A DNA stretch of 64,000 bases, from contig SVAK01000001.1 of NCBI GenBank assembly GCA_015059445.1, forward strand, positions 25,951 to 89,950, written 5' to 3'. Below, piece by piece: positions 29,101 to 47,298 of the stretch. The notes under the pieces are model-generated. The model had not been told where the DNA came from. It worked only from the letters and a program-made list of their open reading frames with translations, and did not search any database. The translations under genes were made by a program, and so were the position numbers. This stretch comes from Bacillota bacterium (GTDB taxonomy: Bacteria; Bacillota_I; Bacilli_A; RF39; UBA660). The first letter of the stretch is position 1; every line of letters starts with the position of its first letter.

Positions 29101-29505
29101 ATGAAAGAATCATATTGGGGATACTGGCTAGTTATCCTAGGAGTATTTGTAGTAGTAATAATGCTTTTAATTCAAAATGTTACCTCTAATAATGCCGAAG
29201 ATAGTTATACGATAAAACAAATTAGTGAAGCTGCTTTAATTGATGCAGTAGATTATGCTTACTATAGAGAATATGGTGAGTTAAGAATCACTAGAGAAAA
29301 ATTTATTGAAAGTTTCTTAAGAAGATTTGCTGACACAGCTTCACTTACTACCAAATATAAAATTACTTTTACTGGTATTTATGAAGCTCCCCCTAAAGTT
29401 AGTGTAGAGGTGACAAGTCAAACAAATACTTACGTAGTAGCTACTGATACAGAAACATTTGATATGTCTAGTAGAGTAGATGCTATTTTAGAACAAAACG
29501 ATTAA
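29101..29505 (+). CDS. Pilin-like/TadE-like small protein (134 aa) with an N-terminal hydrophobic helix
   Basis: Strong RBS AAGGAGG. N-terminus MKESYWGYWLVILGVFVVVIMLL shares the MKE(A/S)..G plus hydrophobic-helix pattern with four downstream pilin-like genes. Confidence 0.4.
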   Translation: MKESYWGYWLVILGVFVVVIMLLIQNVTSNNAEDSYTIKQISEAALIDAVDYAYYREYGELRITREKFIESFLRRFADTASLTTKYKITFTGIYEAPPKVSVEVTSQTNTYVVATDTETFDMSSRVDAILEQND

Positions 29506-29519
29506 GGAGGAAGAATAAA

Positions 29520-30296
29520 ATGGGAAATGTAGTTACAACAATTAAAAGGTTTTTGGGAAACAAGAATACAGTGACAATTTTAGCGGTACTAGCAGGTATA
29601 ATAGTTTTATGGTATTTTTACACATATCGTGTAGAGCAGGCTATAACTACTATAAAAATACCATATGCAACACAAGCTATAGATACTGGAACAAAAATTG
29701 AAACTGATATTATTGAGTATAAAGAAATAACTTCTAGTACATTAAAGGATAGCGACATGATAACTGATGTATCTGCTTTAAAAGATAAATATGTTTGTGT
29801 TGGTACTAGTATACCTGCAAATGGCTTCTTTTATGAATCACAAGTTTGCGATAAAAAAGAATTACCAAATTCAGTTTTAGATGATATACCAGATGATTAT
29901 AAACCATTTACTTTAAGTGTTAATAATCAAATGACATATGCCAATTCCATTATGCCTGAAGATTATATTGATTTATACTTACAAGCAAAAGATGATGATG
30001 GTCAAATAATTTGGGGCCCATTAATTGAGAGTATTGAAGTTCTAGCTGTAAGAGATTCTAGTGGAAGAGATGTATTCTGGGATTCAGCAGCAGGAGATTC
30101 GGCTTACTTATTATTTGCAGTCCCAGATGAATATCATCAATTACTAAATGTTGCTGGATTAATAACTGCAAATAGCATTAAAATTATACCTGTTCCAAGA
30201 AGTGCATCTTATACAGCAAATCCTGGAGAAACTAAGATATCAAGCGAAGAATTATATTACTTTATAATGAGTAAAGCAGCAACATTAACAGAGTAA
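29520..30296 (+). CDS. CpaB/RcpC-like Flp pilus assembly protein
   Basis: N-terminal TM (TVTILAVLAGIIVLWYF) followed by a SAF-like beta-rich domain. The size (258 aa) and position before the ATPase match Tad loci. Confidence 0.55.
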   Translation: MGNVVTTIKRFLGNKNTVTILAVLAGIIVLWYFYTYRVEQAITTIKIPYATQAIDTGTKIETDIIEYKEITSSTLKDSDMITDVSALKDKYVCVGTSIPANGFFYESQVCDKKELPNSVLDDIPDDYKPFTLSVNNQMTYANSIMPEDYIDLYLQAKDDDGQIIWGPLIESIEVLAVRDSSGRDVFWDSAAGDSAYLLFAVPDEYHQLLNVAGLITANSIKIIPVPRSASYTANPGETKISSEELYYFIMSKAATLTE

Positions 30297-30315
30297 AAAA
30301 AGGAGTGGTCGAAAA

Positions 30316-31401
30316 GTGAATGATGCTATATTTTCACAAATAGATTTTGGACCTTTAAAAGAATTTTTAGATGATGATAATATTACGGACATATCCTATA
30401 GTAATAATGGTCAAATTCATTTAAAAACTTTAGATAAAGGTGTATATCCGGTCGAAAGACCAGACATAAATAATGCATTATTGGAAAAATTAGCTTTCCA
30501 ATGTTCTAATGTAATGGGAAAAACATTTAATATGGCTCATCCATTACTCGATGCTGAATCAGCAGAACTGCGTTTAAACTTTGTTCATGATTCCATTGCT
30601 ACAAATGGTATAGCCTGTACAATTAGAAAAACACCAGCCAAGATAAGATTAAATAAAGAAAAATTAATAAATGAACAATATGTTACTGAAGAATTATTGG
30701 ATTTCTTATTAACTTGTGTTGCTGGGCATTGTAATATCATTGTTAGTGGAGAAACAGGTTCTGGTAAAACAGAATTAGTTAAATATTTAGCTAGTCATAT
30801 AAAAGAAAATGAAAAAATAATTACTATTGAAGATACATTAGAATTACACTTAGATAGAATATTTCCTCATCGAGATATTGTAGCTATGAAAACTAATAAC
30901 ATCGCTGGGTATTCTGATGTATTGGTAGCATGTATGAGACAAAATCCAAGATGGATTTTACTATCCGAAGTTAGAAGCGATGAAGCTGTTACTGCAGCGC
31001 GTAATTCGATTTCATCAGGTCATAATATTTTATCAACAATTCACTCTGATAGAGCTAAAAATGTTCCAATGCGTATGTATAGTTTGCTGGAAACAAATCA
31101 AGATATAGAGCAATTTTTAAAATCAATTCATAGATATGTTCAACTAGCAGTACATGTTAAGGGATATATGAGTAAAGAATTAGGAAGATTTCAAAGAGAA
31201 ATTGTTGAAGTGTGTGAATTTTATGTGGATGATGATAATCAAGCAGGTTCAAATGTTATATATAAGAAAAATCTAGATGGAAAATTATTATTTAATGAGC
31301 CATCTAAATATTTAAAAGACTATTTAGGTTCACAAGGTGTTAATTTAAAAGAAAATATTTTTGGAGAAAACACAGAAGTAGAAGAAATAGATTCATTATA
31401 A
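30316..31401 (+). CDS. TadA/CpaF/VirB11-family secretion ATPase
   Basis: GTG start after AGGAGTGG. Walker A VSGETGSGKTE. ITIEDTLEL Asp box/Walker B region. HSD His box. 361 aa. Confidence 0.8.
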   Translation: MNDAIFSQIDFGPLKEFLDDDNITDISYSNNGQIHLKTLDKGVYPVERPDINNALLEKLAFQCSNVMGKTFNMAHPLLDAESAELRLNFVHDSIATNGIACTIRKTPAKIRLNKEKLINEQYVTEELLDFLLTCVAGHCNIIVSGETGSGKTELVKYLASHIKENEKIITIEDTLELHLDRIFPHRDIVAMKTNNIAGYSDVLVACMRQNPRWILLSEVRSDEAVTAARNSISSGHNILSTIHSDRAKNVPMRMYSLLETNQDIEQFLKSIHRYVQLAVHVKGYMSKELGRFQREIVEVCEFYVDDDNQAGSNVIYKKNLDGKLLFNEPSKYLKDYLGSQGVNLKENIFGENTEVEEIDSL

Positions 31402-31421
31402 AAAGGGAAGAAGGTGCATAA

Positions 31422-32327
31422 ATGAGAACATTAACAGAACTTTTAATATTACTAGCATTGGCGATTTTTGTTTTAATGTATCGTAAATCAAAAGATGGTA
31501 AAGTTTTAAAAAATATAGCTGATTCTGTTGGAGATGTTTATAATAAATATGCACCATATTCTTTTAAAATAGTTCGAGAAAAAGCAAAAGAATTAGGGCA
31601 AGAATATACTACACGCCAATATATAACCCAAGTGATTTTATTGGGTGGACTTGCTGGTATTATTGGTTACTTTTACTTTTATAGTATTGTTTGGGCTGTA
31701 ATATATGCTCTAGCAACTATAGCTTTTATACCATATTTAGCATATTTAAGATGTCAAAGAGTATATAGTGAATTTATTTTTGAGCAAATTCAAACTTATA
31801 CAACTAATGTTATAATGGAATTTAATACTACTCAAAGTTTTGTTAAAAGTTTAGAAGGTGTAAGAGATTCAGGGATTATTGAAGATCCTGTATTAAGTGA
31901 CATTAGTAAAATGATAGATATGTCTTATAAAAACGGTACTATAGATGAATCAATTGAATATTTTAATTCTAAATATCCTTATTATATGGTAAAAAATATG
32001 CATCAATTATTTTTGCAAATTACTAAAGAAGGTTCAAGAGATGCTGGAGAATCTTTGGAAAACATGTCAATGGATATCGATGCCTTAGTTGAAGGTGTAT
32101 ATCGTGATCAAATGGATCGAAAGAATTTCCATAAAAGATTCTTAACTTTTGCCCTTGTTTTATTTGCTTTAGTAATAGTTGTAGAGTTTATGTTAGGTAA
32201 AGATAACTATATTGAATTATTGGAAATGTGGTATGTTCAGTTAATCTTACATGTTATTATCATAATAAATATTTATTTCCTAATCACTGGTGAAAAATAT
32301 TACAATGAAGATGTGGGGGCTGAATAA
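31422..32327 (+). CDS. TadB-like (T2SS-F/GspF-domain) pilus assembly membrane protein
   Basis: N-terminal TM, a central helical T2SSF-like cytoplasmic domain and C-terminal TM helices. Sits immediately after the ATPase. Confidence 0.55.
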   Translation: MRTLTELLILLALAIFVLMYRKSKDGKVLKNIADSVGDVYNKYAPYSFKIVREKAKELGQEYTTRQYITQVILLGGLAGIIGYFYFYSIVWAVIYALATIAFIPYLAYLRCQRVYSEFIFEQIQTYTTNVIMEFNTTQSFVKSLEGVRDSGIIEDPVLSDISKMIDMSYKNGTIDESIEYFNSKYPYYMVKNMHQLFLQITKEGSRDAGESLENMSMDIDALVEGVYRDQMDRKNFHKRFLTFALVLFALVIVVEFMLGKDNYIELLEMWYVQLILHVIIIINIYFLITGEKYYNEDVGAE

Positions 32328-33115
32328 TGCAAATAGAAATTATTATAATAGCAATTCTTATATTTGTTGTAATGACCTATAATGGTCAACTTAGCATTAA
32401 AGATTTAATTAATGACAATTTCCATTTATTTCGCAAATTAAAAGAAGATGATTGGGACTTTTATGTCAGAGCTAAATATGGTGATAATGTTAAATCTGAT
32501 AGTATTTTTATTAAAAGAATTAGAAACGGTTTAGCAGTAATTGTTATTTGTCTATTCTTTTTTATTAAAGATTTGGACGCTCTTAAAGTATTAATCTCAG
32601 TTGTGGTAGGATATCTAATATTTAAAATAGATTATTATGATATTAAATCTTTCTATAAAAGACATGTATACCACATTGATAGTATGTTACCGCATTATTT
32701 AAAAAGTATTGAAATATTAATACAACATTATACTGTACCAGTAGCAATCGGCAAATCTATTCTAGATGCTCCGGAAATTTTTAAAGATGGGTTACAGGAA
32801 ATGATTAATGAAATTAATTCTGGTAATGATACAATTGAACCTTATATGAATTTTGCTAAAAAATATCCGGTAAGGGATTCAATGCGTATGATGCGTCTTT
32901 TATATCGTTTGAGCTTAGGAAGTCAAGATAGAAAACAAGAGCAGATGATAATGTTCTCTAGAACTATTTCTAATCTACAACAAAAAGCAAGAGAAACAAA
33001 ATATAAAAATCGTTTAGATAAGATGGAAAGTAAAACCATGAGTATGTTGATGTCAACAGGATTTGGAGTAATGGTTTTGCTAGTATTAGCAGTATTACAA
33101 ATGATGAATTTATAA
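32327..33115 (+). CDS. TadC-like (T2SS-F-domain) pilus assembly membrane protein
   Basis: TAATG overlap with the tadB-like gene. Same architecture: TM, helical domain, TM. It is the paralogue partner of the upstream gene. Confidence 0.5.
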   Translation: MQIEIIIIAILIFVVMTYNGQLSIKDLINDNFHLFRKLKEDDWDFYVRAKYGDNVKSDSIFIKRIRNGLAVIVICLFFFIKDLDALKVLISVVVGYLIFKIDYYDIKSFYKRHVYHIDSMLPHYLKSIEILIQHYTVPVAIGKSILDAPEIFKDGLQEMINEINSGNDTIEPYMNFAKKYPVRDSMRMMRLLYRLSLGSQDRKQEQMIMFSRTISNLQQKARETKYKNRLDKMESKTMSMLMSTGFGVMVLLVLAVLQMMNL

Positions 33116-33212
33116 AAGGTTTTAACTAGCCTTTTATTTTTTTGTCTTGCTTTGCGTATCAGTAAGAATGTTGTCAATAATCATCTAATAATAATTTTTT
33201 ATTTTAAAAATG

Positions 33213-33241
33213 TTGTTATTTTTAAAATAATTAGTTATAAT
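33213..33241 (+). promoter_or_regulatory. Sigma-A-like promoter TTGTTA-17-TATAAT upstream of the tandem pilin-like genes
   Basis: -35 at 33213-33218 and a perfect -10 at 33236-33241. RBS GGAGGAG (33258-33264) precedes the TTG start at 33271. A weak hairpin/T-run follows the tadC stop upstream. Confidence 0.55.
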
Positions 33242-33270
33242 AAAAATATATAATAGAGGAGGAGATTAGT

Positions 33271-33534
33271 TTGAAAGAAGCAACTGGAGAATTAAATATG
33301 ACAGTTATTACTATAGTAGCAATAGGAGCATTGGTAGCATTCTTCTATTTGGTTATTTGGCCAAATATCCAAGTTGGTATGACTTTATCGTCTGCTTGTA
33401 ATAGTGCAGGGACTGCAGCGATGAATCAAACATTAGATGATGGTTCTACCATAGTTTGTAATGGTGCAGATCCAAATGTTTGTACATATACACCAGCAGG
33501 TGGAGGCGCTGCTACAACAAGAACTTGTGACTAA
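33271..33534 (+). CDS. Short pilin-like protein 1 (87 aa) with a Cys-rich C-terminus
   Basis: TTG start. MKEATGELN leader then hydrophobic helix MTVITIVAIGALVAFFYLVIW. C-terminal CNSAG...CNGADPNVCTYTPAGGGAATTRTCD. Confidence 0.5.
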   Translation: MKEATGELNMTVITIVAIGALVAFFYLVIWPNIQVGMTLSSACNSAGTAAMNQTLDDGSTIVCNGADPNVCTYTPAGGGAATTRTCD

Positions 33535-33540
33535 CTAATT

Positions 33541-33774
33541 ATGAAAGAAGCAACAGGTGAACTTAATGCCACTGTTGTAGTAGTATTGGCTATTGGAGTT
33601 CTAATAGCCTTTTTTTACTACACTTTGTGGCCTTTAATGAAAGATAATTTCAATAAAAATTCACAATGTAGTAAGGCTATTTGTGAATCATGTAATACGG
33701 GGAATTGTGATTATGTGACTTGTCATCCTAAAAATGATCCAACTACTGAATTTGAATGTGTATATAAAGGTTAA
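33541..33774 (+). CDS. Short pilin-like protein 2 (77 aa), tandem paralogue
   Basis: Identical MKEATGELN leader, hydrophobic helix ATVVVVLAIGVLIAFFYY, and a six-Cys C-terminus (CSKAICESCNTGNCDYVTC...C). Confidence 0.5.
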   Translation: MKEATGELNATVVVVLAIGVLIAFFYYTLWPLMKDNFNKNSQCSKAICESCNTGNCDYVTCHPKNDPTTEFECVYKG

Positions 33775-33786
33775 GGAAGTGATTTA

Positions 33787-34305
33787 ATGAAAGAAGCTTT
33801 GGGTGGAATATCTTTGTTTCAAATAGTTATAGTTTTTATTCTGCTATTTACAGGTATTATTTGTCTAACAATTAATCAATCTAAAGCTTTTGCTGTTAAA
33901 GATGAAATTATTACTATAATCCAAAATCAAAATATTGATTCATTTAGTAATGGTTCCGATTATAAACTCACTGACGATACATCTCAAAATATAGCGGTTC
34001 GTTTAAAAGATGCGGGATATAGAACTACTGGTAATTGTCCAAGTGGTGAATGGATTGGTTATAGTAGAGATGGCGTTGAAGTGAGTAATAACGCAGCCTT
34101 TTGCATTAGAGTTAATAATGTATCTAGCACGTTTTATTCAGATTTAGAAAATAAATGCACTGCTGATAAATGTATAATTACATCAGAAGATTACCCTTCG
34201 ATGGTTTATTATGATATCGTCTTATTTTATGAGTTAGATATACCAATATTAAAATATTTTATGAATTTTAAAATATATGGTTCTACGAAAGTATTGTTTG
34301 GTTAG
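33787..34305 (+). CDS. Pseudopilin/TadE-like minor pilin candidate (172 aa)
   Basis: MKEALGG leader plus the hydrophobic helix ISLFQIVIVFILLFTGIICL. Shares a GY(R/D)T(T/V)G(N/K)C block with the next gene. Confidence 0.45.
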   Translation: MKEALGGISLFQIVIVFILLFTGIICLTINQSKAFAVKDEIITIIQNQNIDSFSNGSDYKLTDDTSQNIAVRLKDAGYRTTGNCPSGEWIGYSRDGVEVSNNAAFCIRVNNVSSTFYSDLENKCTADKCIITSEDYPSMVYYDIVLFYELDIPILKYFMNFKIYGSTKVLFG

Positions 34306-34312
34306 GTGATTT

Positions 34313-34807
34313 ATGAAACAGGCAGTAGCAACAACATCTATTTTTAAAGTAGTATTAGTTTTTACGCTTTTATTTTCGGCATTTCTAGCAGTGGCAATAA
34401 CTTATAATAGAGTTTATAAGTTAAAAAATGAAACAATAGCTATAGTTGAAAAATATGAAGGAATAAGTAGAAAATCTTTAACTATAATCAATAATTATTT
34501 ACAAAATAGCGGTTATGATACAGTAGGAAAATGTGAAAATGGAGAATATGGGATAACCGATTTATCTAGTGATACTTATGAACTTTCCCAAAATAATAAA
34601 GATTATTATTATTGTTTGAATTTTTTTTGTCAAGGTTCAAGCTGTAATGTAAATGATTCTTCTACACCAAATGGTAATCAAATATTTTATAATGTTAAAT
34701 TCTTTTTTAAATTTAACATTCCATTTATTGGAGAATTATTTACTTTTAATATAAATGGCAATACAAAAGGAATTAAGCTTTATTCTGAAACACAAAAATT
34801 ATCATAG
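34313..34807 (+). CDS. Pseudopilin/TadE-like minor pilin candidate (164 aa), paralogue of the preceding gene
   Basis: MKQAVATTSIFKVVLVFTLLF leader/helix. Conserved GYDTVGKCENGEYG block. Confidence 0.45.
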   Translation: MKQAVATTSIFKVVLVFTLLFSAFLAVAITYNRVYKLKNETIAIVEKYEGISRKSLTIINNYLQNSGYDTVGKCENGEYGITDLSSDTYELSQNNKDYYYCLNFFCQGSSCNVNDSSTPNGNQIFYNVKFFFKFNIPFIGELFTFNINGNTKGIKLYSETQKLS

Positions 34808-34821
34808 AAGGAGTATTATAA

Positions 34822-35787
34822 ATGAATGTAATAATATCAAATAAATATCAAACTTTATTAGGAACATTAAATATTGATGTTATTAAAACTATCAATGGAG
34901 AGTTTAGTGTTCAAGATTTAGTTAATCAATTTAGTAATTTTTACTATAATAAAATGGTTATTGATATAACAGCAATTAAAAATTATCAGAATGTTAATGT
35001 TATGCGCGAGTTATCAATGAATTTTGAAATGGATAAAGTAGTTGTTTTATTAGATGATTCACCTCAGGTGAATTCATCAATGTACTTATCGCAATTAGTG
35101 TCAGTTGGAATTTATAATTTTACTAGAAGTGTAGATGCTATTCCTTTCTTAATTGAACATTCTAATTCATATAAAGATGTTGCTAGTTATCAAAACTTTA
35201 ACGCGAATTCCGGAAATTTTGTGCCAACTAAAGAAGAAAGTACTCCAGTTAAATTAGAACAAAGAGTTATAGGATTTAAAAATGTCACGGAACATGCCGG
35301 GGCTACAACTCTAATATATATGCTAAAAAAACATCTTCAAGACACATATAAAGTCAAAGCCATAGAGGTAAATAATAATGACTTTGAATATTTTAATGAT
35401 AAAACATTAGAAAGCGCTGACTTTATGAATGTTTCTTATAAAATTTCTAATTTTTCTGATGTAGAAGTAATTTTGGTGGATTTAAATGATGCTCCAGAAA
35501 GTATTTGTACTGAAATAATTTATTTAATTGAACCAGGAATAATTAAATTAAACAAGTTAATTAGAACTGATAGAAAAATATTTGATAAATTAAGAAATAA
35601 GAAAATAGTATTAAATAAAAGTGTATTAAGTAATAATGATGTATCTGATTTTGAATATGAAAGTGGCAGTAAAGTGTTTTTTAATATACCTTGTTTAGAC
35701 GAAAAATTGGATAATAACAAAAAAATTGTTGAGTTTTTAATTGCTCTAGGTTTTTCTAGATTAAATAGCGAAACCAAAAGATGGTAA
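34822..35787 (+). CDS. TadZ/CpaE-like protein with a degenerate ParA/MinD ATPase domain
   Basis: N-terminal receiver-like alpha/beta segment (VVVLLDD). Central segment RVIGFKNVTEHAGATTLIYML sits where the deviant Walker A (KGGxGKT) would be but lacks the Lys-Thr. ILVDLND resembles a Walker B. Confidence 0.4.
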   Translation: MNVIISNKYQTLLGTLNIDVIKTINGEFSVQDLVNQFSNFYYNKMVIDITAIKNYQNVNVMRELSMNFEMDKVVVLLDDSPQVNSSMYLSQLVSVGIYNFTRSVDAIPFLIEHSNSYKDVASYQNFNANSGNFVPTKEESTPVKLEQRVIGFKNVTEHAGATTLIYMLKKHLQDTYKVKAIEVNNNDFEYFNDKTLESADFMNVSYKISNFSDVEVILVDLNDAPESICTEIIYLIEPGIIKLNKLIRTDRKIFDKLRNKKIVLNKSVLSNNDVSDFEYESGSKVFFNIPCLDEKLDNNKKIVEFLIALGFSRLNSETKRW

Positions 35788-35814: not shown

Positions 35815-35843
35815 TTGACATATATATATAAATTCGTTAGAAT
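35815..35843 (+). promoter_or_regulatory. Near-consensus sigma-A promoter TTGACA-17-TAGAAT at the boundary between the Tad-like and T4SS-like modules
   Basis: -35 TTGACA at 35815-35820 and -10 TAGAAT at 35838-35843. The RBS and ATG 35870 lie downstream. Confidence 0.6.
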
Positions 35844-35869
35844 TTAATTAAAGAAAGAAGGTTTAAAAT

Positions 35870-36259
35870 ATGTTAATAGCAGCAGGTTTATGTGAAGAAA
35901 CAGCAAATGTTTGGTATTTATTAGGATTAGTAGTAAATCTTATAAGAATAATTATTCCACTAATTTTAATTATATTGGGAATGTTAGATTTAGGAAAGGC
36001 TGTAGTAAACAGTGATGAAAAAGCTGTATCAAAAGCAGTAGGGACTTTAGCAAAAAGATTTGTAGGAGCTTTAATAATGTTCTTTATCCCAACAATTATT
36101 AGTGCAATCTTTAGTGCCCTTACTACAATAAATCTAACTAGTGGTGATGCTAATGTATGTATGCAATGTTTAACAAATGCAACTGGTGATACTCCGGTAG
36201 GTTCTCAAAATCAAAGTTGTAAAGCTTATGCTGATGCATTAAATGGAACTGGAAACTAA
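35870..36259 (+). CDS. Small two-helix membrane hairpin protein (129 aa), candidate major structural subunit (VirB2-analogue?)
   Basis: Two TM helices flank an amphipathic loop DLGKAVVNSDEKAVSKAVGTLAKRF. The C-terminal tail carries CMQC...SCK. The gene is bracketed by its own strong promoter and terminator. Confidence 0.5.
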   Translation: MLIAAGLCEETANVWYLLGLVVNLIRIIIPLILIILGMLDLGKAVVNSDEKAVSKAVGTLAKRFVGALIMFFIPTIISAIFSALTTINLTSGDANVCMQCLTNATGDTPVGSQNQSCKAYADALNGTGN

Positions 36260-36285
36260 AAAATCACATAAAGTGATTTTTTTTA
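36258..36285 (+). terminator. Rho-independent terminator right after the 129-aa hairpin gene
   Basis: Stem AAATCAC (36261-36267), loop ATAAA, stem GTGATTT (36273-36279), then a run of eight T. Confidence 0.65.
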
Positions 36286-36355
36286 TTTTATACTTTTAAA
36301 TTGTCTCGGAAAATGTTAAAATTGTATTATAAGTTATATAGATGGGATGTTGGGT

Positions 36356-37414
36356 ATGAAAAAACTTTTTTTGGCTTTTATAATTTGTTTATTTAGTATT
36401 CCGATTTTTACGCATGCAATAGCTGAATATGAATATGCTGATATTAAAAAATGTTACTTGAAAAATGTAGAGTCTACTAATATAGTAAATGATTCTTACA
36501 CAAATAATAAAAGTGCTTGTTTTCCTGCATTTGATAGAGGAGCAAATCAGATTGTTGATAAAGAACGTTTGGAAAACGAAAGTGCGTGTGATGACGGCTT
36601 TGAACTTTATCAAATAAAACATCCATATACAGACGAGCTTGGCAATGAATGGGAGGCTGTAGGTTATGGGTGTAGAAAAAAAACAGGTGAAGTATTTATA
36701 AATGAAACAATGTATTGTAGATACGATTTAAATAGTTATAAACTTATGTTAGTATACAAAAATAACAAATTTAGTATAAAAACTACAACTGTACGCCCTG
36801 ATGTAGAAATAGATTATATGCCTTCATATGATGATGCAACTTGGTCTTTAAGTTACACTAATTATTCTTTTAGTAATACTAATAAAGTCTTAGATGGTGT
36901 ATTATGGGGGTGCCCAAATTATGTTGAGCCTGTATTAGATAGTAATGGTAATGTTATTGAATATTCTTTTTATGATAAAAAAAATGATAACGAAAATGGA
37001 TATTCGATATATACAAAGGATGACACTGATGATAGTTTTTATGCTAGTCTTTGTTCTACAGATAATAAATCAACCACTCAAGTTAGATTAGCATTTAAAA
37101 TGGCTGGCTATGTAATACAAATAATAAAGTGGTTAATACCTATTCTGATTGTAGTTTTAGGTATGGTGGATTTTGGTCAAGCAGTTATATCTAATGACGA
37201 AAAAGCCTTAAGTAAATCTTTAGCATCTTTGACAAAAAGATTAATAGCAGGAGTAGTAGTGTTTTTTATACCTTCTATAATAATGGGAATATTAAGTGTA
37301 ATTGAAATTACAAAAGGAATTGAAAAAGAATCAAATTCAAATTTTGGGGCTTGTACAAAATGTTTATTTGATCCATTTGATAGTTGCGATATTCCCGAAG
37401 AATATAAAAAATAA
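36356..37414 (+). CDS. Secreted Cys/Tyr-rich protein (about 352 aa) anchored by a C-terminal two-helix hairpin, paralogous to 35870..36259
   Basis: Signal peptide MKKLFLAFIICLFSIPIFTHA. C-terminal IIKWLIPILIVVLGMVDFGQAVISNDEKALSKSLASLTKRLIAGVVVFFIPSII. CTKC near the C-terminus. I prefer ATG 36356 to the track's 36347. Confidence 0.55.
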   Translation: MKKLFLAFIICLFSIPIFTHAIAEYEYADIKKCYLKNVESTNIVNDSYTNNKSACFPAFDRGANQIVDKERLENESACDDGFELYQIKHPYTDELGNEWEAVGYGCRKKTGEVFINETMYCRYDLNSYKLMLVYKNNKFSIKTTTVRPDVEIDYMPSYDDATWSLSYTNYSFSNTNKVLDGVLWGCPNYVEPVLDSNGNVIEYSFYDKKNDNENGYSIYTKDDTDDSFYASLCSTDNKSTTQVRLAFKMAGYVIQIIKWLIPILIVVLGMVDFGQAVISNDEKALSKSLASLTKRLIAGVVVFFIPSIIMGILSVIEITKGIEKESNSNFGACTKCLFDPFDSCDIPEEYKK

Positions 37415-37455: not shown

Positions 37456-38847
37456 ATGAAAAGATATATAATTTTAATTGTTTTTATTTTTATGATGCTT
37501 ATGCCAACTTATACTGAAGCAAAAGAATACCAAGAATTAGTTTGTATGTATGTGGTAGCTTCAGATACAACTGGAGAACATGCGATTCTTATTGAGCAGT
37601 TATCAGATGGAAGCAAAACGGTTTATACAAGAAAGCCAAATACTTATAAAGATGATAGTGATAAAACTTACAATTTTATAAGAGACAAGTGGGATACTAT
37701 TGGTGAGATTATGGGAGGAAATAACTCAAAATATGATATTAAAGACTGGGAAAATGGTTGGGTTGAAACTCCAAATATAAACTGGTATTCTGAAATTCAA
37801 CCACTGGGAACTTATGATTACAGAAATGGCGATTTTTGTGATGCGAGCAGTGGAACGGATTATCTTTGTGAAGGTTATATAAAAAAAATTACAGCTTCTG
37901 AATTTGATTTGGCTGATTATTGTGGCGACGATGACATGAATTTATATAGATTTCATGATACTGCAAGTGAGGAAGTTGGATCTCCTTATTGGGATTATAC
38001 TACTTCTGCATTCTATGCAACTCTTACTAAGAGACATTTAGTTTTTAGTGAAGATATTTTGTCTTTGGAAACAAATGAAGGTTTTATAGAATATGTATTT
38101 GCAGCCTCTTCATTCACTATCGGAAAACATGATGGAAGTGGTAACTTAGATCCGGGGTATCAAGGTGCCATAGATAATATAGATACTATAATTCCTTATG
38201 ATGGTGATTATGAGGAATATAAAAATATAAAGTATAATACATACTGGAATATGTACTGTCATTATGGTTCGCCATTAAATATGAAAACGGTTGTGGAATT
38301 GTATGTTAATAATAGTACTCTATTATTATATAACCCGAACTCTGAAACAAATTATCCTTATTCAGCTTTTAATCACGATGATGTAAAAAATATGGAATCT
38401 TGTCCTCCAGTCTTATATGGAGTGGGAGCTATAGTAGATGGTATCCAACATTATACTTATTATTTGAAGGAACCTGCTTTATGGTCTGGATATTCTTTGC
38501 TTTATTCAGGTAGTGGATTTGTACCAGGCGAAGAGAATGTTTTGATCCAAGAGCAAAGTTGTGAGTCTCTGTTAGGCAATCCTCAGACTAATGGAACACC
38601 AGCTTATTACTTGCAATTTGTTCTAAATTTGATTAAATATGCTGCCATCATATTGCTAGTAGTATTAAGTATTTTTGATTTTGTCGGCGCCGTTTCATCA
38701 CATGATCAAGAAATACTTTCTAAGTGTGTCAAAAAAGTCGGTTTTAGACTTATTTGGTGTGTAGCTATATTCTTTATTCCAACCATACTAAATTATATAT
38801 TTACATTTGTAGAAATATATAGTCCTAGTACATGCGGAATTAAATAA
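37456..38847 (+). CDS. Secreted protein (463 aa) with a C-terminal two-helix hairpin module, third paralogue
   Basis: Signal peptide MKRYIILIVFIFMMLMPTYTEA. C-terminal LIKYAAIILLVVLSIFDFVGAVSSHDQEILSKCVKKVGFRLIWCVAIFFIPTIL. Confidence 0.55.
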   Translation: MKRYIILIVFIFMMLMPTYTEAKEYQELVCMYVVASDTTGEHAILIEQLSDGSKTVYTRKPNTYKDDSDKTYNFIRDKWDTIGEIMGGNNSKYDIKDWENGWVETPNINWYSEIQPLGTYDYRNGDFCDASSGTDYLCEGYIKKITASEFDLADYCGDDDMNLYRFHDTASEEVGSPYWDYTTSAFYATLTKRHLVFSEDILSLETNEGFIEYVFAASSFTIGKHDGSGNLDPGYQGAIDNIDTIIPYDGDYEEYKNIKYNTYWNMYCHYGSPLNMKTVVELYVNNSTLLLYNPNSETNYPYSAFNHDDVKNMESCPPVLYGVGAIVDGIQHYTYYLKEPALWSGYSLLYSGSGFVPGEENVLIQEQSCESLLGNPQTNGTPAYYLQFVLNLIKYAAIILLVVLSIFDFVGAVSSHDQEILSKCVKKVGFRLIWCVAIFFIPTILNYIFTFVEIYSPSTCGIK

Positions 38848-38865: not shown

Positions 38866-41361
38866 ATGAATATTTTATCAATTTTTTCAATTTTAGCTGG
38901 ACCCTTTTCTGGATTAGAAGGCAGTGAAATAATAATCAATTTTTTACTTTTAATTGATTCGAAAATTTATGAATTATTTGGTTATTTATATGGTTTATAT
39001 ATATCAATAGCTAGTGCGAAAATATTTAATGTCGAAGTTTTTGATTATTTTGTTAAAAATATTTATATTATTTTTGGGGTAGTAGCTTTATTTATTCTTG
39101 CTTTCTTTCTATTACAAAATGTTGTAAATCCAGAAGGAAATGGCACCAAAGATGCAAAAGATTTTATTATGCGTTTTGTCTTGGCAATTGGATTAACATT
39201 TTTGATTCCATTCTTTTTTGATTTTCTTTATGACTTTCAATATTCTATTTTAAAATACGGCACTATACCCAAGATTACTCTAAGCGAAGCTAGAAATACT
39301 ATTGTAGAAGTGCCAATATATTATAAAAATGAACTTGGTCAATATTTTTGCGAAGATCTAACAACTTTTTATGATGAAAAAACTAATCCATGCAAAATCT
39401 ATTCTACTGTCGAAAAAGTAGATAAAGGTGAAGCAGTACTTCGCGCATACGGTTACGGTATAGCATATGATGTATTTAGTGGTTTTCTCTATCCATCTGG
39501 GCTAGTTGCAGACGATGAACTCGTAATAAATGCTAGTGACTATTTTACAGCTGAGAGAGGTGCCTCATGGGGAATTTGGGGATGTATTGCTGGAGCTGGG
39601 CTAGTTGCAGTTGGAGCTGTAGTTACTTATTTTACCGGAGGTCTAGGGGCTGTTGGAGGTTTTATTACTGCTAAAACAGGTACCGCAATGGTGTTAGGGT
39701 GTCTTGGCCTCGGTGCCTTAGGGGGAGTGGCCAATGCTGTGGGTGGCGTAATTGATGCCGAAAAATATCCATGGACTAGTATAGTACAAAGTATGGAATA
39801 TATGGGAGATTATTCTTTAGTACCAGCACTAGATGGTGCTATTGTTACCGGCCATATAGAATATTCACCTATTATTTCTACTGTTGCTGGTATCATTTTA
39901 GTGTATTTAATATTTAGTTTTTGTCTTGATTTGGGTGTAAGAGCTGCTAAATTAGTTTTATATCAACTATTAGCACCATTAAGTTTTATTATAAGCGCAA
40001 TTCCATCAAAGAAAGATTTAATGTCCAAATGGTTTAAAGCTGTTTTTACAATTTGGATGGAGGTTTTTATAAGAATAGTTTGTGTTTGTGGCGTAGCAAT
40101 GCTAATCCGAAATTTAAATTTGGGTGAGTTTGAGAGTTTAGGCGGCTTAGCTAAAGCTATTATTGTTTTAGGTTTAGTAACATTTGCTAAACAGTTTCCT
40201 AGATTGTTGGGAGATATACTTGGTTTTGATTCAGGAAACTTGAAATTAGGTATAAAAGAAAAATTAGCTGAAGGTGGTGCATTTACTGCTGGAGCATTAG
40301 TTGGAGCTGGAGCGACAGCACTTTTAAGAAATACTGTAGCAGGAGCAAAAGGTGTCAAAAATAAGTTCTTGGAAAACAAAAAAGCATTAAATGATGCTGG
40401 TAAAACAGGTTGGAAGGCTAATTTGGCTGCTGCTTGGCAGTCTAAAGGAGCAGCTGGTAAAATGCTTGGATCTATGGCTGCTGGAACGGTATCCGGAGCT
40501 TTCAGAGGTGGTAAAGCTGGATGGTCTGCCAAAAATTGGGGTGATATGACATCAGCAGCTGGTAAAGGCGCAAAAGGTGCTACTGATGCAAGAATAAAGC
40601 GAGCAAGTTACAAAGCTAGCCACGGAGGTACTATTGGTGGAGCTTTTGAAGGACATTTCCATGACATGCTTCAAGGTGGAGCAAAATGGCTTGGAATTGA
40701 AGAAGACTACACTGTGCTTCAAGCCGAGCAAAATAGCGCTGATTCATTATTAGCATCAGTAAAAAAAATTGGGGATATAAGCGAAGATTATATTGTTAAA
40801 CATCAGAGTGAATTTTTTGCGAAATTAACTGAGGATCAAGAAAATGCTATTGCAGAACTTAGAAAGAAAATTGCAAATACTAGTCCTCACCGTAAAGATA
40901 AGATACAAAAATATGAACAACAAATAGCTCAAATTCAAGCATCAACAAGATTAGATTATTTAGAAGCGGCTATTAAAGAAGCTGAAAAGTCTGGAGATGC
41001 AATAGCAATTGCTGAGGCAACTAATAGATATAAAAAAGCTTTTAAAGATATTAAAGATGGATTTGCATCTTCAGTATTTTCACATGAGGGAGCTAGTAAG
41101 GAAGCAATTGCTATTCAAGCAGAATTGGATAGTATCAATAATAAATTGCGTGAAGAAGTCAATTCTCAAGTTGTGTCATTGTTAAGATCAGGTAGAGCAA
41201 ATGAAGCTGGTAAAACTATTGTTGGTGCACAAGAAGGAGATGTAAGAGCTGATAATGCTGCCGATTTCTTGAAACAATTAAAGTCTGCTGCTGAAGTAAC
41301 TACTGCTGAAATAAGTGCTGAACGTTCTAAACTTGAAAGAAGACAAAAAAAAGATAAATAA
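38866..41361 (+). CDS. VirB6-like polytopic membrane protein of Gram-positive T4SS (TcpH/PrgH/ConG-like), 831 aa
   Basis: Multiple TM helices including a Gly/Ala-rich membrane segment (GIWGCIAGAGLVAVGAVVTYFTGGLGAVGGF...). A roughly 350-aa C-terminal Ala/Lys/Gly-rich coiled-coil domain. Its size and its position before the VirB3/VirB4-like genes fit the family. Confidence 0.55.
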   Translation: MNILSIFSILAGPFSGLEGSEIIINFLLLIDSKIYELFGYLYGLYISIASAKIFNVEVFDYFVKNIYIIFGVVALFILAFFLLQNVVNPEGNGTKDAKDFIMRFVLAIGLTFLIPFFFDFLYDFQYSILKYGTIPKITLSEARNTIVEVPIYYKNELGQYFCEDLTTFYDEKTNPCKIYSTVEKVDKGEAVLRAYGYGIAYDVFSGFLYPSGLVADDELVINASDYFTAERGASWGIWGCIAGAGLVAVGAVVTYFTGGLGAVGGFITAKTGTAMVLGCLGLGALGGVANAVGGVIDAEKYPWTSIVQSMEYMGDYSLVPALDGAIVTGHIEYSPIISTVAGIILVYLIFSFCLDLGVRAAKLVLYQLLAPLSFIISAIPSKKDLMSKWFKAVFTIWMEVFIRIVCVCGVAMLIRNLNLGEFESLGGLAKAIIVLGLVTFAKQFPRLLGDILGFDSGNLKLGIKEKLAEGGAFTAGALVGAGATALLRNTVAGAKGVKNKFLENKKALNDAGKTGWKANLAAAWQSKGAAGKMLGSMAAGTVSGAFRGGKAGWSAKNWGDMTSAAGKGAKGATDARIKRASYKASHGGTIGGAFEGHFHDMLQGGAKWLGIEEDYTVLQAEQNSADSLLASVKKIGDISEDYIVKHQSEFFAKLTEDQENAIAELRKKIANTSPHRKDKIQKYEQQIAQIQASTRLDYLEAAIKEAEKSGDAIAIAEATNRYKKAFKDIKDGFASSVFSHEGASKEAIAIQAELDSINNKLREEVNSQVVSLLRSGRANEAGKTIVGAQEGDVRADNAADFLKQLKSAAEVTTAEISAERSKLERRQKKDK

Positions 41362-41381: not shown

Positions 41382-41699
41382 GTGAATAATTATTTAATAC
41401 CAGCCAATACAAAGAAATCCCAATTAATTTTAGGTTTCTTTACTCTGACAGATTTAATTATATTTATAGTTGGAGTTGTATGGTCATTTATAATGTTAGT
41501 ACTTATAAAATCATTAAATTTACCAGTTTTAATTTTAATAATGCTACCGGCATTAATTGCAACATTCTTAGTAATGCCGGTACCGCATTATCATAATATA
41601 TTGCAATTACTAACTAATATATTTAGTTTTTATACTAATAGAAGACAATATTTTTGGAAAGGATGGTGTATTCATGAAGGAAACAACTCAAGTAAATAA
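41382..41699 (+). CDS. VirB3-like small membrane protein (PrgI/ConD-like), 105 aa
   Basis: GTG start after GAAGGAGG. Two TM helices. Sits immediately upstream of, and overlapping, the VirB4 gene. Confidence 0.45.
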   Translation: MNNYLIPANTKKSQLILGFFTLTDLIIFIVGVVWSFIMLVLIKSLNLPVLILIMLPALIATFLVMPVPHYHNILQLLTNIFSFYTNRRQYFWKGWCIHEGNNSSK

Positions 41700-42237
41700 T
41701 GGCGCAAGGTTTACAGATGCTTGGTTACCAGTTAGACAAATCATGAATGGAATGATTCAACTTGATAGTGGTTACTATGTTACCGGTGTTAAGGTTCATC
41801 CTAAGAATATATTTATTATGGATCAACAAGCTCAAGACGGTATGGTTTATAATTTAAGAAATTTTTACAATACTATAGATTATGAATTTTGGTTAATCAT
41901 AGCTGATCGACCAGTTGATATTAATTTATACTTAGCAGAACTTCAAAGAATGTATAATAATACTACTAGTAATGAAATTAGAAAATTAATATTACAGGAT
42001 ATTAATAAAGCCAATCAATTCATGAGCATTGAATATAATGTTGTGGATACTGAATATTATTTGATTTTCCAAGAAAAAAAATTGGAAGTATTACAAAAGA
42101 AATTACATAATATGATAAGTGGACTTGCCTCATGTGGATTACAATCTACTCAAACAAGTAATAGTGATTTAAGGGTTATTTTAGATAATTTATTAAATGG
42201 GGGAGAAACAATTAATTTTGGGACGGTGATGTACTAA
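41674..42237 (+). CDS. VirB4-family ATPase, N-terminal domain as a separate 187-aa ORF
   Basis: Overlaps the upstream gene by 26 nt. Ends in TAATG overlapped by the start of the next ORF. 187 + 594 aa together give the usual length of about 780 aa for a Gram-positive VirB4 (TcpF/PrgJ/ConE). Confidence 0.5.
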   Translation: MKETTQVNNGARFTDAWLPVRQIMNGMIQLDSGYYVTGVKVHPKNIFIMDQQAQDGMVYNLRNFYNTIDYEFWLIIADRPVDINLYLAELQRMYNNTTSNEIRKLILQDINKANQFMSIEYNVVDTEYYLIFQEKKLEVLQKKLHNMISGLASCGLQSTQTSNSDLRVILDNLLNGGETINFGTVMY

Positions 42238-44021
42238 TGGGTTTAAGAAGTGAAATAGCTCCGAGAGGAATGGAATTTAAACCAACTGAGTTTAGAATTG
42301 GTGGAAAATATTCTACCATTATGACAATAGTTACTTTTCCCAAAAATATCTATGTAGGTTATTTATCTGATATTACTAGTATATCTGGTGTAAAAGTTGT
42401 AGTAAAACATATTCCAATTCAATTTAGTGTTTTACAAAAAATGATTAATAAAGAAATTGCGGATTTAAAAACTAGATATCAAGCAGAAAAAGATCAAACA
42501 ATGCAAGAAAAATTACGTCAAGATTATGAATCTTTAGAACAATTTGTTAGTATGTTAGCTGCTACTTCTGCTAGAATATTTGATTTTCAAATGCATTTGA
42601 TGATTACTGCTGATAGTAAAGAAGAATTAGATATTAAGAAAATGGAAGTTAAGAGTTATTTAAATGCCATGGGCATGAGTGGAGTAGCTTTAATGTTTGA
42701 ACAAGAAAAAGTTTTAAAAAGTATTATTCCAATATTTCCAAAACAAGATATTGAAGAAAGAATTGGTACTCCAATTCCTTCTGTCACAGTAGCAGCGATG
42801 TATCCATTTGTTTTTGATAGTATCAAAGATCCTGGACCAGCTTGTCTATTTGGTGTAGACTTTTCTGGAGGAGTAGTATTATTTAATCAGTTCCTATATC
42901 AATTAAGAAAAGAACATAACCGTAATAATGCTAATATGATTTTACTTGGTACATCAGGGAGTGGTAAATCAACTGCAGCAAAATTACTATTAAGAACTCA
43001 TATTAGAAATGCTTGTAAAATTGTTGCAATAGATCCTGAAGGCGAATTAGAAGAAATGTGTAACACTCTTGGTGGAGATTTCTTGGATTTAGGTAAAGGT
43101 GGAGAATTCGGAATGATAAATCCACTGGAAGTTGTAGTAGATGTTGATGAAGAAGAAATAAGTCAAGGATTAGGTTATACAGTTTTAACAAGAACTATTC
43201 AACAATTAAAAGCTTTTATGAAGTATTATAGTCCTTCTATAGAAGAAGACGTTTTAACTTTATTTAGTGAAGTTGTTCAAGATACTTATAAAAGATATAA
43301 AATAGATTACAATACAGATTTTACTAAGTTAACTAGTGAAATGTTCCCAACTTTTGATGATGTTTATGCCACAATCAAAGGAAGATTATTATCAATGGTT
43401 GATGCAACTCATGAAAGAGATGTAATGGAAAGATTAGAACTTAAAGTAAGACCATTAATTAAAGAATTAAGATATTATTTTACTGGACACACTACAATTC
43501 AAATTAATAGTGATTTTATAGTCTTTAATATCAAAGAATTAATGAATAGTGATGAAAATATTAAAAATGCTTTATTCTTTAATATATTAAAATATGCTTG
43601 GGGATTATGTTTAGAAAAAGATGTTAATACAGTAATGATGGTGGATGAAGCACATACATTACTAACAACTCATAACGAGCTCGGTGCTGAATTCTTATCA
43701 CAAATTCAAAGACGTAGTCGTAAATATAACACAGGAACTATTATAATTACGCAACAACCAACCGATTTTGCAGCGCCAAATATAATTCAACATGGTAAAG
43801 CAATATTTGATAATGCTAGTTATTATCTAATTATGGGTCTTCGTAAACAGGCAGTTGATGATTTAGCTCAATTAATTGATTTAAATGAATCAGAAAAAGA
43901 AAGTATTAAATTCTATCCACAAGGTCAAGGTTTATTTGTATGTGGTAATAGAAGAATGAGAATTAATGTAGTGGTAACTCAGGAAGAACTAGATTCATTT
44001 GGTTCTGGAGGAGGATTCTAA
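42237..44021 (+). CDS. VirB4-family T4SS ATPase, C-terminal (NTPase) part
   Basis: Walker A LLGTSGSGKSTAAK, Walker B VMMVDEAHTLL and the RSRKYNTGTIIITQQPTDF motif typical of VirB4/TraC. Confidence 0.8.
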   Translation: MGLRSEIAPRGMEFKPTEFRIGGKYSTIMTIVTFPKNIYVGYLSDITSISGVKVVVKHIPIQFSVLQKMINKEIADLKTRYQAEKDQTMQEKLRQDYESLEQFVSMLAATSARIFDFQMHLMITADSKEELDIKKMEVKSYLNAMGMSGVALMFEQEKVLKSIIPIFPKQDIEERIGTPIPSVTVAAMYPFVFDSIKDPGPACLFGVDFSGGVVLFNQFLYQLRKEHNRNNANMILLGTSGSGKSTAAKLLLRTHIRNACKIVAIDPEGELEEMCNTLGGDFLDLGKGGEFGMINPLEVVVDVDEEEISQGLGYTVLTRTIQQLKAFMKYYSPSIEEDVLTLFSEVVQDTYKRYKIDYNTDFTKLTSEMFPTFDDVYATIKGRLLSMVDATHERDVMERLELKVRPLIKELRYYFTGHTTIQINSDFIVFNIKELMNSDENIKNALFFNILKYAWGLCLEKDVNTVMMVDEAHTLLTTHNELGAEFLSQIQRRSRKYNTGTIIITQQPTDFAAPNIIQHGKAIFDNASYYLIMGLRKQAVDDLAQLIDLNESEKESIKFYPQGQGLFVCGNRRMRINVVVTQEELDSFGSGGGF

Positions 44022-46518: not shown

Positions 46519-47298
46519 ATGAATAATTCAAAAAAGAAAATTTTAATAGGAATAGCAGTAATATTATTATTAGTTACATTAATTGTTATCTTTTTAGGAA
46601 ATCGCGAAAAAGAACCTATTGATAATAAAAATAATGGTACCCCAGTGGCAGAAATATCTAAAACTTTTTCTAAAGTAAATGATTATAAAGAATATTTTAG
46701 TATTGAAAATACAATAAGTCAAACTTTAGCACTTACTGAAGCGTTCTTTGCTAAAGAAATATACACTAATAATGATAGTACAACCAGATACTATTTTGTG
46801 AATGGATGTATCACTGAAGTATTAATGGATGATGAAACTACAAATTATAATAAATCAGTTAATTATTTATTAATTGTGGGAATGCGTAATAATAATTATG
46901 AAATTGTAAATTTAAGTAATAATATTTCAGATTTATTAGATTATGCGAAAAAATATGATGTTAAACATCAGGAAATTAATACTGGTCAAAGACTTGCAAA
47001 TGGTATTGATAATATTCAAAATATTCTTATAACGTATATAGAATACTTTAAAGAGATGTTGTTTTTTGATCCAGAATTAGCATATAATATGTTAACTGCG
47101 GATACAAAAAATAAATATTTAAATTATGCTGATTTTTATAATCAAATACCAGATGTTTATAATAACTTATCTTCTGCTATATTTGCTTATAGTAAGAAAG
47201 AAAAAGAAGATATTATAGAATATTATATAAAAGACGATAGTCAAAATGATATAAAGATTATTGAGTATGATATTATGAACTTTAAAATTAGTTATTAA
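46519..47298 (+). CDS. Membrane-anchored extracytoplasmic protein, VirB8-like candidate (PrgL/TcpC/TraM position)
   Basis: N-terminal TM (ILIGIAVILLLVTLIVIFL) followed by about 230 aa of soluble domain. The call rests on gene order between the hydrolase and the coupling protein. Confidence 0.3.
   Translation: MNNSKKKILIGIAVILLLVTLIVIFLGNREKEPIDNKNNGTPVAEISKTFSKVNDYKEYFSIENTISQTLALTEAFFAKEIYTNNDSTTRYYFVNGCITEVLMDDETTNYNKSVNYLLIVGMRNNNYEIVNLSNNISDLLDYAKKYDVKHQEINTGQRLANGIDNIQNILITYIEYFKEMLFFDPELAYNMLTADTKNKYLNYADFYNQIPDVYNNLSSAIFAYSKKEKEDIIEYYIKDDSQNDIKIIEYDIMNFKISY

Follow-up and report, generated by a model that had tools for sequence, protein, structure and literature searches.

Background

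VirB2-like pilins of type IV secretion systems (T4SSs) have been described in bacteria and archaea. TrbC, VirB2 and TrhA undergo head-to-tail cyclization (PMC12037004), and the archaeal DNA-import systems use the VirB2-like pilins CedA1 and TedC (Beltran et al. 2023, PMC9905601). VirB2-like pilin arrays have been reported in monoderm Patescibacteria (Wang et al. 2023, PMC10633639; Quinonero-Coronel et al. 2025, PMC12102498), where a short subunit and divergent tandem paralogues are encoded near virB4, and where the PF18895 family was among the search profiles (PMC12102498; PMC10633639); members of these arrays were detected by an independent E-value (i-E) < 0.001 together with > 50% coverage of the profile hidden Markov model (PMC12102498). 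The plasmid pCF10 needs for its transfer PrgF, a VirB2-like protein with two transmembrane (TM) helices whose gene lies beside a VirB6-like gene (ter Beek et al., bioRxiv 10.64898/2025.12.18.695078), and for Gram-positive conjugative plasmids VirB2-like proteins have been predicted in ~95% of 174 classes (10.64898/2025.12.18.695078). A review from December 2025 still holds that Gram-positive T4SSs lack VirB2, with the exception of Patescibacteria (PMC12857230). Here we analyze a gene encoding a 129-aa protein with two TM helices (35870-36259, + strand), which lies between a Tad-like filament block and T4SS genes in a window of 64,000 nucleotides from the contig SVAK01000001.1 of a Bacillota bacterium (GCA_015059445.1); "the window" denotes this whole stretch, and all coordinates refer to it. 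We regard the product, with moderate confidence, as a short and probably major subunit of a VirB2-like pilin set in a chromosomal MPF-FATA-type T4SS, the host of which is an uncultured low-GC gut or rumen member of Bacilli.

An earlier reading of the window, made from the letters alone and hereafter called the sequence-only reading, had compared the gene to VirB2/TrbC-type pilins of Gram-negative bacteria, on the premise that T4SSs of Gram-positive bacteria are pilin-less. This premise reflects an older view, which the reports on Patescibacteria pilin arrays (2023-25) and on PrgF-type proteins (a preprint of December 2025) have made outdated, and VirB2-like pilins in single-membrane T4SSs are a kind already known.

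Family assignment of the 129-aa protein

The comparison of the 129-aa protein with Pfam returned a single match, to the PF18895 family (T4SS_pilin), with E = 0.009 (0.0092) and a score of 16.5 bits, as compared to the gathering cut-off of 26.6 bits. The alignment pairs residues 14-80 with profile positions 5-71 of 71 and thereby spans the whole two-helix model. The same family is matched by 32 of 38 homologues at E <= 0.01 (best E 1e-6), and in a rescan with bit scores four of the homologues, which are 53-57% identical to the window protein, exceeded the cut-off (P0014: 27.1 bits; P0019: 29.1 bits; P0044: 27.7 bits; P0106: 27.2 bits). The membership of the window protein therefore follows by transitivity from its homologues, and not directly. 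By this sequence evidence the 129-aa protein is very probably homologous to PF18895, and it is best described as a divergent member at the edge of that family. Several homologues would also pass the detection criterion that was applied to the Patescibacteria arrays.

One of the 38 family members matched T4SS_CagC (E = 0.0075). In NCBIfam, the 129-aa protein found only chance matches to hydrophobic families, e.g. MamI and FrdD, while in PHROGs it matched no lysis family and a single family of unknown function (E = 0.008). Among the 72,556 plasmids of PLSDB, megablast reported no match for the 33-47 kb region of the window and tblastn reported none for the 129-aa protein. The resemblance to VirB2/TrbC-type pilins that the sequence-only reading had pointed out is thus upheld with respect to topology, size and position, and it is extended by the full-length alignment to PF18895, whereas the profile comparisons it had proposed, with TrbC/VirB2 (PF04956) and PrgF-like families, gave no match to either of them (see below); the outcome of the profile searches is mixed, though in favor of a pilin.

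Tandem paralogues

The gene of the 129-aa protein is the first of three consecutive genes that carry the same module, as found by hmmsearch with the family profile (E = 6e-51, 3e-30 and 4e-14, in the order of the genes). The second gene (36347-37414, + strand) encodes a protein of 355 aa with a signal peptide, a Cys-rich N-terminal domain of ~240 aa (window positions 36347-37100) and the pilin module in residues 249-346; the hhalign comparison of this segment with the hairpin family gave a probability of 99.5% and E = 1e-22. The third gene (37456-38847, + strand) encodes a protein of 463 aa, again with a signal peptide, behind which come a Cys-rich domain of ~380 residues and a C-terminal pilin module, the TM segments of which were located by hydropathy in residues 384-455. 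In the wider family the module is often found at the C-terminus of proteins of 200-450 aa, and 42 of 83 loci contain two or three copies of it.

A search of 5.8 billion proteins with the 355-aa sequence as a query revealed one near full-length match, 99% identical, and seven others that cover 28-41% of the query. The C-terminal pilin module is widely conserved; for the N-terminal domain, this search identified no homologue beyond its own species. Such a distribution is what an exposed adhesin or a surface domain of variable sequence would show, and the sequence comparison suggests that the exposed domain of this paralogue diversifies rapidly.

Topology and conservation of the hairpin

The 129-aa protein comprises an N-terminal tail (residues 1-13, with C8), TM1 (14-39), a charged segment predicted to be cytoplasmic (40-63), TM2 (64-86), and a variable C-terminal tail (87-129), which carries the C97-x-x-C100 motif and C117. 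The AlphaFold2 model (pLDDT 77, pTM 0.57) consists of two helices (residues 12-46 and 50-86) joined by a 3-residue turn, with lower confidence in the C-terminal tail. Lys and Arg residues are concentrated in the 40-63 segment (five, as compared to none in the N-terminal tail and one in the C-terminal tail), so that according to the positive-inside rule both termini are placed outside the cell. The orientation of TM1 with its N-terminus out is fixed independently by the long paralogues, in which a signal peptide and a large Cys-rich domain precede this helix. Hydropathy, charge counts and the structural model thus agree on the two TM helices that the sequence-only reading had described, with both termini predicted outside.

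We compared the protein and its gene with a set of 80 non-redundant homologous loci from other species, whose proteins are 35-58% identical to that of the window. The core (TM1, loop and TM2) shows a frequency of the commonest residue of 0.63-0.73, and the tails are less conserved (0.48 for the N-terminal and 0.33 for the C-terminal tail); judged from the alignment, a conserved core with variable tails is a pattern typical of a pilin. At least 99% of the 80 species have the residues C8, C97, C100 and C117, and exactly four Cys residues are found in 65 of the 80 homologous proteins. All four are likely to be extracellular and to form two disulfides that link the N- and C-terminal tails. Just 13 residues precede TM1, where VirB2/TrbC proteins have a long cleaved signal peptide. 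An in-frame TAA (35864-35866) is located 3 nucleotides (nt) 5' of the ATG at 35870 and rules out an N-terminal extension, hence the 129-aa protein is made without a signal peptide; in the homologues, too, the protein begins with ML right before the conserved Cys.

The family is large: 161 homologues were found in a word-indexed search and 9357 cluster representatives at E <= 1e-3 in an exhaustive scan, and a relative is encoded in at least 402 species genomes of GTDB. The hosts are uncultured Bacilli, "Tenericutes", "Mycoplasma sp." and Erysipelotrichaceae, and include Firmicutes bacterium CAG:460 and Candidatus Coprovivens (Bacilli incertae sedis), with metagenome-assembled genomes originating from the gut or rumen of rabbit, human, goat, buffalo, deer and chicken. 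We take these lineages to correspond to the order RF39 of GTDB.

A conserved expression cassette

The sequence-only reading had described the gene as a self-contained expression cassette, with a near-consensus promoter, an open reading frame (ORF) for a 129-aa two-helix hairpin and a canonical, strong terminator. The ORF is present, with two TM segments by hydropathy, and so is the promoter. The latter is of the sigma-A type (35815-35843, + strand) and reads TTGACA-17-TAGAAT, with the hexamers at 35815-35820 and 35838-35843, a spacer of 17 nt, a match to the consensus in 11 of 12 positions and a predicted transcript start at ~35850. It is the best consensus match on the + strand within 30-47 kb. 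This region contains as many promoter-like sites as expected from shuffled sequences (104 found, 104.8 expected, at a window GC content of 28%), so the site is not significant on the window alone. A Shine-Dalgarno sequence, AGAAGG (35856-35861, + strand), is placed 8 nt 5' of the ATG, and the motif agaaagaagg is present in many of the aligned upstream regions of homologous loci.

The intrinsic terminator (36258-36289, + strand) was identified by folding and consists of a 10-bp AU-rich stem (arms 36258-36267 and 36273-36282) with a 5-nt loop, followed by TTTTTTTTATTTT; its folding energy is -9.3 kcal/mol (z = -3.1 as compared to shuffles). The shape, a hairpin with a T-run, is indeed canonical, but the epithet "strong" does not fit, as only two of the ten pairs are G-C. 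For the same reason the stem was missed by a consensus terminator scan, which needs three G-C pairs. The terminator is probably leaky. The Rfam analysis of the whole window reported a tRNA (63240-63313) as the sole match, and no known RNA element within the cassette.

Comparison across species provides the evidence for the cassette that the window alone does not. With 834 other ORFs from the same 80 loci as controls, a promoter match of at least 10/12 was found ahead of 75 of the 80 hairpin genes and 15% of the controls (Fisher p 2e-48), a match of at least 11/12 ahead of 51 of the 80 and 3% of the controls (p 3e-43), and a stem-loop with a T-run 3' of the stop codon in 66 of the 80 and in 105 of 834 controls, i.e. 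13% (p 1e-39); the loci are related by descent, so these p-values overstate their independence. The promoter has the form TTGAC(A/T)-17-TAxAAT in 74 of the 75 promoter-bearing loci, nearly always TTGAC(A/T)-17-TAAAAT, and in most of the 75 its end lies 23-36 nt 5' of the ATG. The terminator stems vary in sequence among species (arms of AAAAATCAC/GTGATTTTT, AACCAC/GTGGTT, AAGAATGA/TCATTCTT and AACAATAGATTT/AAATCTATTGTT, for example), while their structure and position remain constant. In the gap 3' of the hairpin gene, a promoter-like site of at least 10/12 occurs in just 20 of 54 loci. This conservation bears out the self-contained cassette as a real, selected feature. The simplest reading of these signals is that a strong promoter and a leaky terminator would set a high ratio of the hairpin protein to the products encoded downstream.

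No conserved operator was found around the promoter in the aligned loci, where, apart from the hexamers, the conspicuous sequences are limited to TTTC ahead of the -35 and TtAGa ahead of the -10. Some loci (L038, L039, L078, L087 and others, though not the whole set) possess a second TTGACA/TTTACA-like hexamer ~24 nt 5' of the -35, which could be a tandem promoter or the site of a regulator.

T4SS genes downstream of the array

The sequence-only reading had placed the hairpin gene just before the VirB6/VirB3/VirB4 genes. It does lie ahead of them, with the two longer paralogues in between. The first gene behind the array (38866-41361, + strand) starts 2.6 kb downstream of the hairpin gene and encodes a polytopic membrane protein of 831 aa with ~7 TM helices, which is a candidate VirB6-like protein by position and topology. 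Its best family match is weak (NCBIfam pLS20_p028, E = 0.086), and neither BLASTP against PrgH nor phmmer against PDB reported anything. In a metagenome strain of the same species (L001, 12997-15491), the VirB6-like gene was called as two ORFs of 434 and 384 aa, either because of a strain-level frameshift or because of a sequencing error.

The genes for a VirB3-like protein, VirB4, a cell-wall hydrolase and VirD4 follow 5-12 kb downstream of the hairpin gene on the same strand. The VirB3-like protein of the PrgI/TcpE kind (41382-41699, + strand; 105 aa) was identified by Pfam matches to PrgI (E = 2.5e-5) and TcpE (E = 1e-4). The VirB4 ATPase (41674-44021, + strand) is encoded as two ORFs, which match positions 99-276 and 297-891 of NCBIfam VirB4_plasma: one of 187 aa with the TraC-like N-terminal domain (41674-42237) and one of 594 aa with the ATPase domain (42237-44021); a single base is shared by the stop of the former and the start of the latter. 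Every related locus that holds these genes has the same split, which indicates a genuine two-gene VirB4 and not a pseudogene. The closest families are that of the Mycoplasma integrative and conjugative element (ICE) and CD1110. Further downstream are a VirB1-like cell-wall hydrolase with Peptidase_M23 and Phage_lysozyme2 domains according to Pfam (44080-46506, + strand), a protein of 259 aa with a single TM helix (46519-47298, + strand) and a VirD4-like coupling protein of the CD1115 family (47360-49582, + strand; NCBIfam E = 1e-86, 291 bits as compared to the cut-off of 250). With 129 aa and two TM helices near a virB6-like gene, the hairpin protein falls within the range used for PrgF-type proteins (50-150 aa, two TM helices, PrgF-like topology, near virB6), and with three divergent pilin-module genes near virB4 the locus resembles a tandem array, for which at least two are expected.

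Tad-like block and genomic neighborhood

Directly upstream of the cassette lies a block of genes for a Tad-like type IV filament (29101-35787, + strand). It encodes a DUF5411 protein, an RcpC/CpaB-like protein, a T2SSE ATPase, two polytopic proteins, two Cys-rich mini-pilin-like ORFs, pilin-like ORFs of 172 and 164 aa, and a cytoplasmic protein of 321 aa; no prepilin peptidase was identified in the block. The mini-pilin-like ORFs (87 and 77 aa) start with (L/M)KEATGELN followed by a hydrophobic stretch. A promoter-like site that matches the consensus in 10 of 12 positions, TTGTTA-17-TATAAT (33213-33241), precedes the first of them, which may accordingly have its own promoter too. The block is preceded by a gene (25406-29080) for a secreted protein of 1224 aa with 47 Cys residues and no family match, which is kept in most loci. 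The extracellular parts encoded by this locus are unusually Cys-rich for an anaerobe.

The Tad-like block is syntenic with the hairpin gene and the T4SS genes in most of the 80 loci, and the same gene order is seen in loci whose hairpin protein is 36-60% identical to that of the window. In 52 of 73 loci the 321-aa gene is the immediate upstream neighbor of the hairpin gene, and in 26 of 45 VirB3/VirB4 are found within 10 kb downstream of the latter. In rearranged loci the hairpin gene may stay with the Tad pilin block (L008) or with VirB3/VirB4 (L047, L057 and L067, of which the last two also show a VirB6-like gene). As either association can be kept upon rearrangement, the two machines seem to be inherited together as a single unit, in which the hairpin gene marks the junction.

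The locus is flanked by housekeeping genes, with prolyl-tRNA synthetase, formate-tetrahydrofolate ligase (FTHFS) and UvrB on one side and uracil-DNA glycosylase and Met gamma-lyase on the other, and its GC content is uniform. Among the ORFs scanned at 12.4-13.5, 14.8-51.7, 52.0-56.2 and 60.2-63.0 kb of the window, several of which had no family, none belonged to a known relaxase or integrase family. A mobile element of the ICE type was considered and is not supported, since the housekeeping flanks, the uniform GC content and the lack of a relaxase or integrase in the scanned ORFs argue against it. Towards the end of the window, a stretch of ~20% GC (60001-62000) coincides with an ORF of 935 aa (60171-62978) without a Pfam or NCBIfam match, behind which the above-mentioned tRNA gene is located.

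Proposed assembly model and alternative interpretations

We propose the following model. The near-consensus sigma-A promoter would drive a short transcript, most of which would end at the leaky AU-rich terminator, so that the small subunit would be made in large excess over the machinery encoded behind it, and the downstream genes would be expressed by read-through and from weaker promoters. The protein would insert into the membrane without a signal peptide, as a hairpin with both termini outside and the Lys/Arg-rich segment 40-63 in the cytoplasm; C8 of the N-terminal tail and C97, C100 and C117 of the C-terminal tail would then face the outside, where two disulfides would probably tie the tails together. 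VirB4 would power the extraction of subunits from the membrane and their stacking onto the polytopic VirB6-like protein, and the stacking would build a tube, a conduit or a short pilus through the cell wall. The two longer paralogues could enter the assembly by way of the module they have in common, as minor or adhesive subunits, and thereby display their N-terminal domains, which appear to evolve fast.

The support for a pilin comes from homology, not from function, and a number of observations weigh against it. The window protein is below the cut-off of PF18895 (16.5 vs 26.6 bits), and with E = 0.0092 it does not reach the i-E < 0.001 demanded of the Patescibacteria pilins, although its alignment covers the required part of the model. 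The name of PF18895 is itself a prediction, and a filament of this family has never been seen. None of the 38 family members matches PF04956 (TrbC/VirB2) at E <= 0.01; hhalign detected no similarity between PrgF of pCF10 and the 129-aa protein (probability 0.3%); the search of PDB sequences with the family profile yielded only chance matches to the Shaker channel (E ~3) and no solved pilin; and the Foldseek comparison of the AlphaFold2 model with PDB returned generic helical hairpins (best E = 2.4) and no pilins. The fold of a two-helix hairpin is, however, not very informative. The 831-aa protein is assigned to VirB6 by topology and position alone, the terminator is weak on paper (two G-C pairs, -9.3 kcal/mol), and the linkage of the hairpin gene to the Tad-like block (52/73) is at least as tight as that to VirB3/VirB4 (26/45), with 19 of 45 loci lacking VirB3/VirB4 within 10 kb downstream.

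Part of this evidence would suit a T4SS channel or base component that is homologous to PF18895 and forms no extracellular filament, at most a short wall-spanning sleeve, the paralogues of the array being adhesins for which the hairpin is nothing more than a membrane anchor. In addition to the absence of any visualized PF18895 filament, the PrgF preprint reports no pilus by electron microscopy (10.64898/2025.12.18.695078), the many family members with the module at the C-terminus of a 200-450-aa protein have it where a simple anchor would be, and the locus already encodes a separate filament system in the Tad-like block. We nevertheless find such a component unlikely: the dedicated and conserved promoter and terminator imply a need in bulk, which suits a polymer better than a part present in fixed number, and the conservation of the hairpin core, cytoplasmic segment included, goes far beyond what an inert anchor would require. 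The position of the gene directly behind the 321-aa Tad gene, the absence of a terminator between that gene and the hairpin promoter, the loci without VirB3/VirB4 nearby, and the arrangement in L008, where the hairpin gene ends the pilin block and housekeeping genes follow, would agree with another role, as a part of the Tad-like machinery and not of the T4SS, e.g. an assembly-platform or anchoring subunit. The only family link of the protein is, however, to T4SS_pilin, its paralogues are on the T4SS side, and in several loci (e.g. L047, L057 and L067) the gene is followed by VirB3/VirB4, mostly with a VirB6-like gene, and no Tad genes are found within the 6-10 kb of upstream sequence. To our knowledge, no Tad component is a two-TM hairpin of this kind, and altogether we judge the Tad role quite improbable.

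Small proteins with two TM helices are common, and weak profile matches to hydrophobic families are unreliable (chance-level matches to Frizzled and 7TM as well as MamI and FrdD also occur), which leaves room for an unrelated small membrane protein that happens to be encoded between the two machines, such as a class II holin, a bacteriocin-immunity protein or an exclusion factor. This is very hard to reconcile with strict synteny with the T4SS and Tad genes across hundreds of species, with paralogues that bear fused secreted domains, and with PF18895 being the top and only consistent match, at full coverage of the model; no lysis or phage family matches the protein, and we regard the possibility as extremely remote. 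A class II holin in particular is disfavored, as there is no lysis match in PHROGs and the context is a secretion locus and not a prophage.

Implications

The pilin-set interpretation makes this locus independent comparative evidence that single-membrane T4SSs have pilins, a question to which the long-held answer "no" has been under revision since 2023-2025. What it adds is a set of PF18895-like pilins in Bacillota, whose conserved cassette is what one would expect of a structural subunit made in bulk, as well as adhesin-like fusion paralogues and a strict coupling to a Tad-like filament. In the literature we searched, we found no description of this particular branch of the family in Bacillota or of its conserved promoter-terminator cassette, nor of the four-Cys signature, the fusion paralogues, or the fixed association with a Tad-like block that a large group of gut Bacilli displays; a look through the literature for such a system in RF39-type Bacilli likewise returned nothing. 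Many Bacilli of gut and rumen, a large group, thereby come to notice as carriers of a chromosomal Tad and T4SS machine.

As no relaxase was seen in the scanned ORFs, the question arises what this machine transfers. We speculate that the cassette could be the most expressed part of a lineage-wide chromosomal organelle for interaction or acquisition, composed of the Tad-like and T4SS parts, and not of a transfer apparatus of a mobile element; we put this forward tentatively, as a possibility on the doubtful side. By analogy, and no more firmly, such an organelle might correspond to the essential T4SS of epibiotic Patescibacteria, its hosts being uncultured gut and rumen Bacilli whose genomes appear to be small. 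If this were true, a way of life, or at least a machine, would be common to Patescibacteria and a lineage of Bacillota that is frequent in animal guts. The uncultured state of the hosts sets a practical limit on direct tests.

Comparison with known systems

With VirB2/TrbC/TraA of Gram-negative bacteria, the 129-aa protein shares the predicted location of both termini outside and of a short charged loop inside, and the position of its gene ahead of VirB3/VirB4/VirB6; it differs in the lack of a PF04956 match and of a long cleaved signal peptide, and in a host without an outer membrane. Tails tied by disulfides, as inferred here, would resemble the cyclization of TrbC, VirB2 and TrhA. The similarity to CedA1/TedC extends to a VirB2-like hairpin, a candidate pilin in the present case, a chromosomal, apparently non-mobile T4SS-like machine, the absence of an outer membrane and a separate type IV pilus alongside; unlike them, the 129-aa protein has no sequence match to any solved pilin chain.

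Like PrgF, the hairpin protein is small, has two TM helices with a charged cytoplasmic connection and no signal peptide, and is encoded near a VirB6-like gene. Unlike PrgF, to which it has no detectable sequence similarity, it is 129 and not 75 aa long, because of the Cys-bearing C-terminal tail, and it is chromosomal and lineage-wide, whereas PrgF-type proteins are plasmid-borne. PrgF is encoded inside the long prgQ operon without a cassette of its own, in contrast to the hairpin gene. PrgF itself (L090, 11546-11773) shows a sub-threshold Pfam match to Maff2 (E = 0.004), a family of small membrane proteins of Firmicute conjugative elements, and Maff2 might therefore be a PrgF-type VirB2-like family.

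From the arrays of Patescibacteria the locus differs in its host, which belongs to Bacilli, in the score of the window protein, which is under the family cut-off, and in that two of the three members are long fusions with secreted N-terminal domains; VirD4, reported missing in Southlakia epibionticum, is present here. In other respects the correspondence is close: both comprise two-TM hairpins encoded by tandem divergent genes near VirB6/VirB3/VirB4 in an MPF-FATA-like system of a monoderm host, and in both the locus is chromosomal and accompanied by genes for a type IV filament system; no relaxase was seen in the ORFs scanned here.

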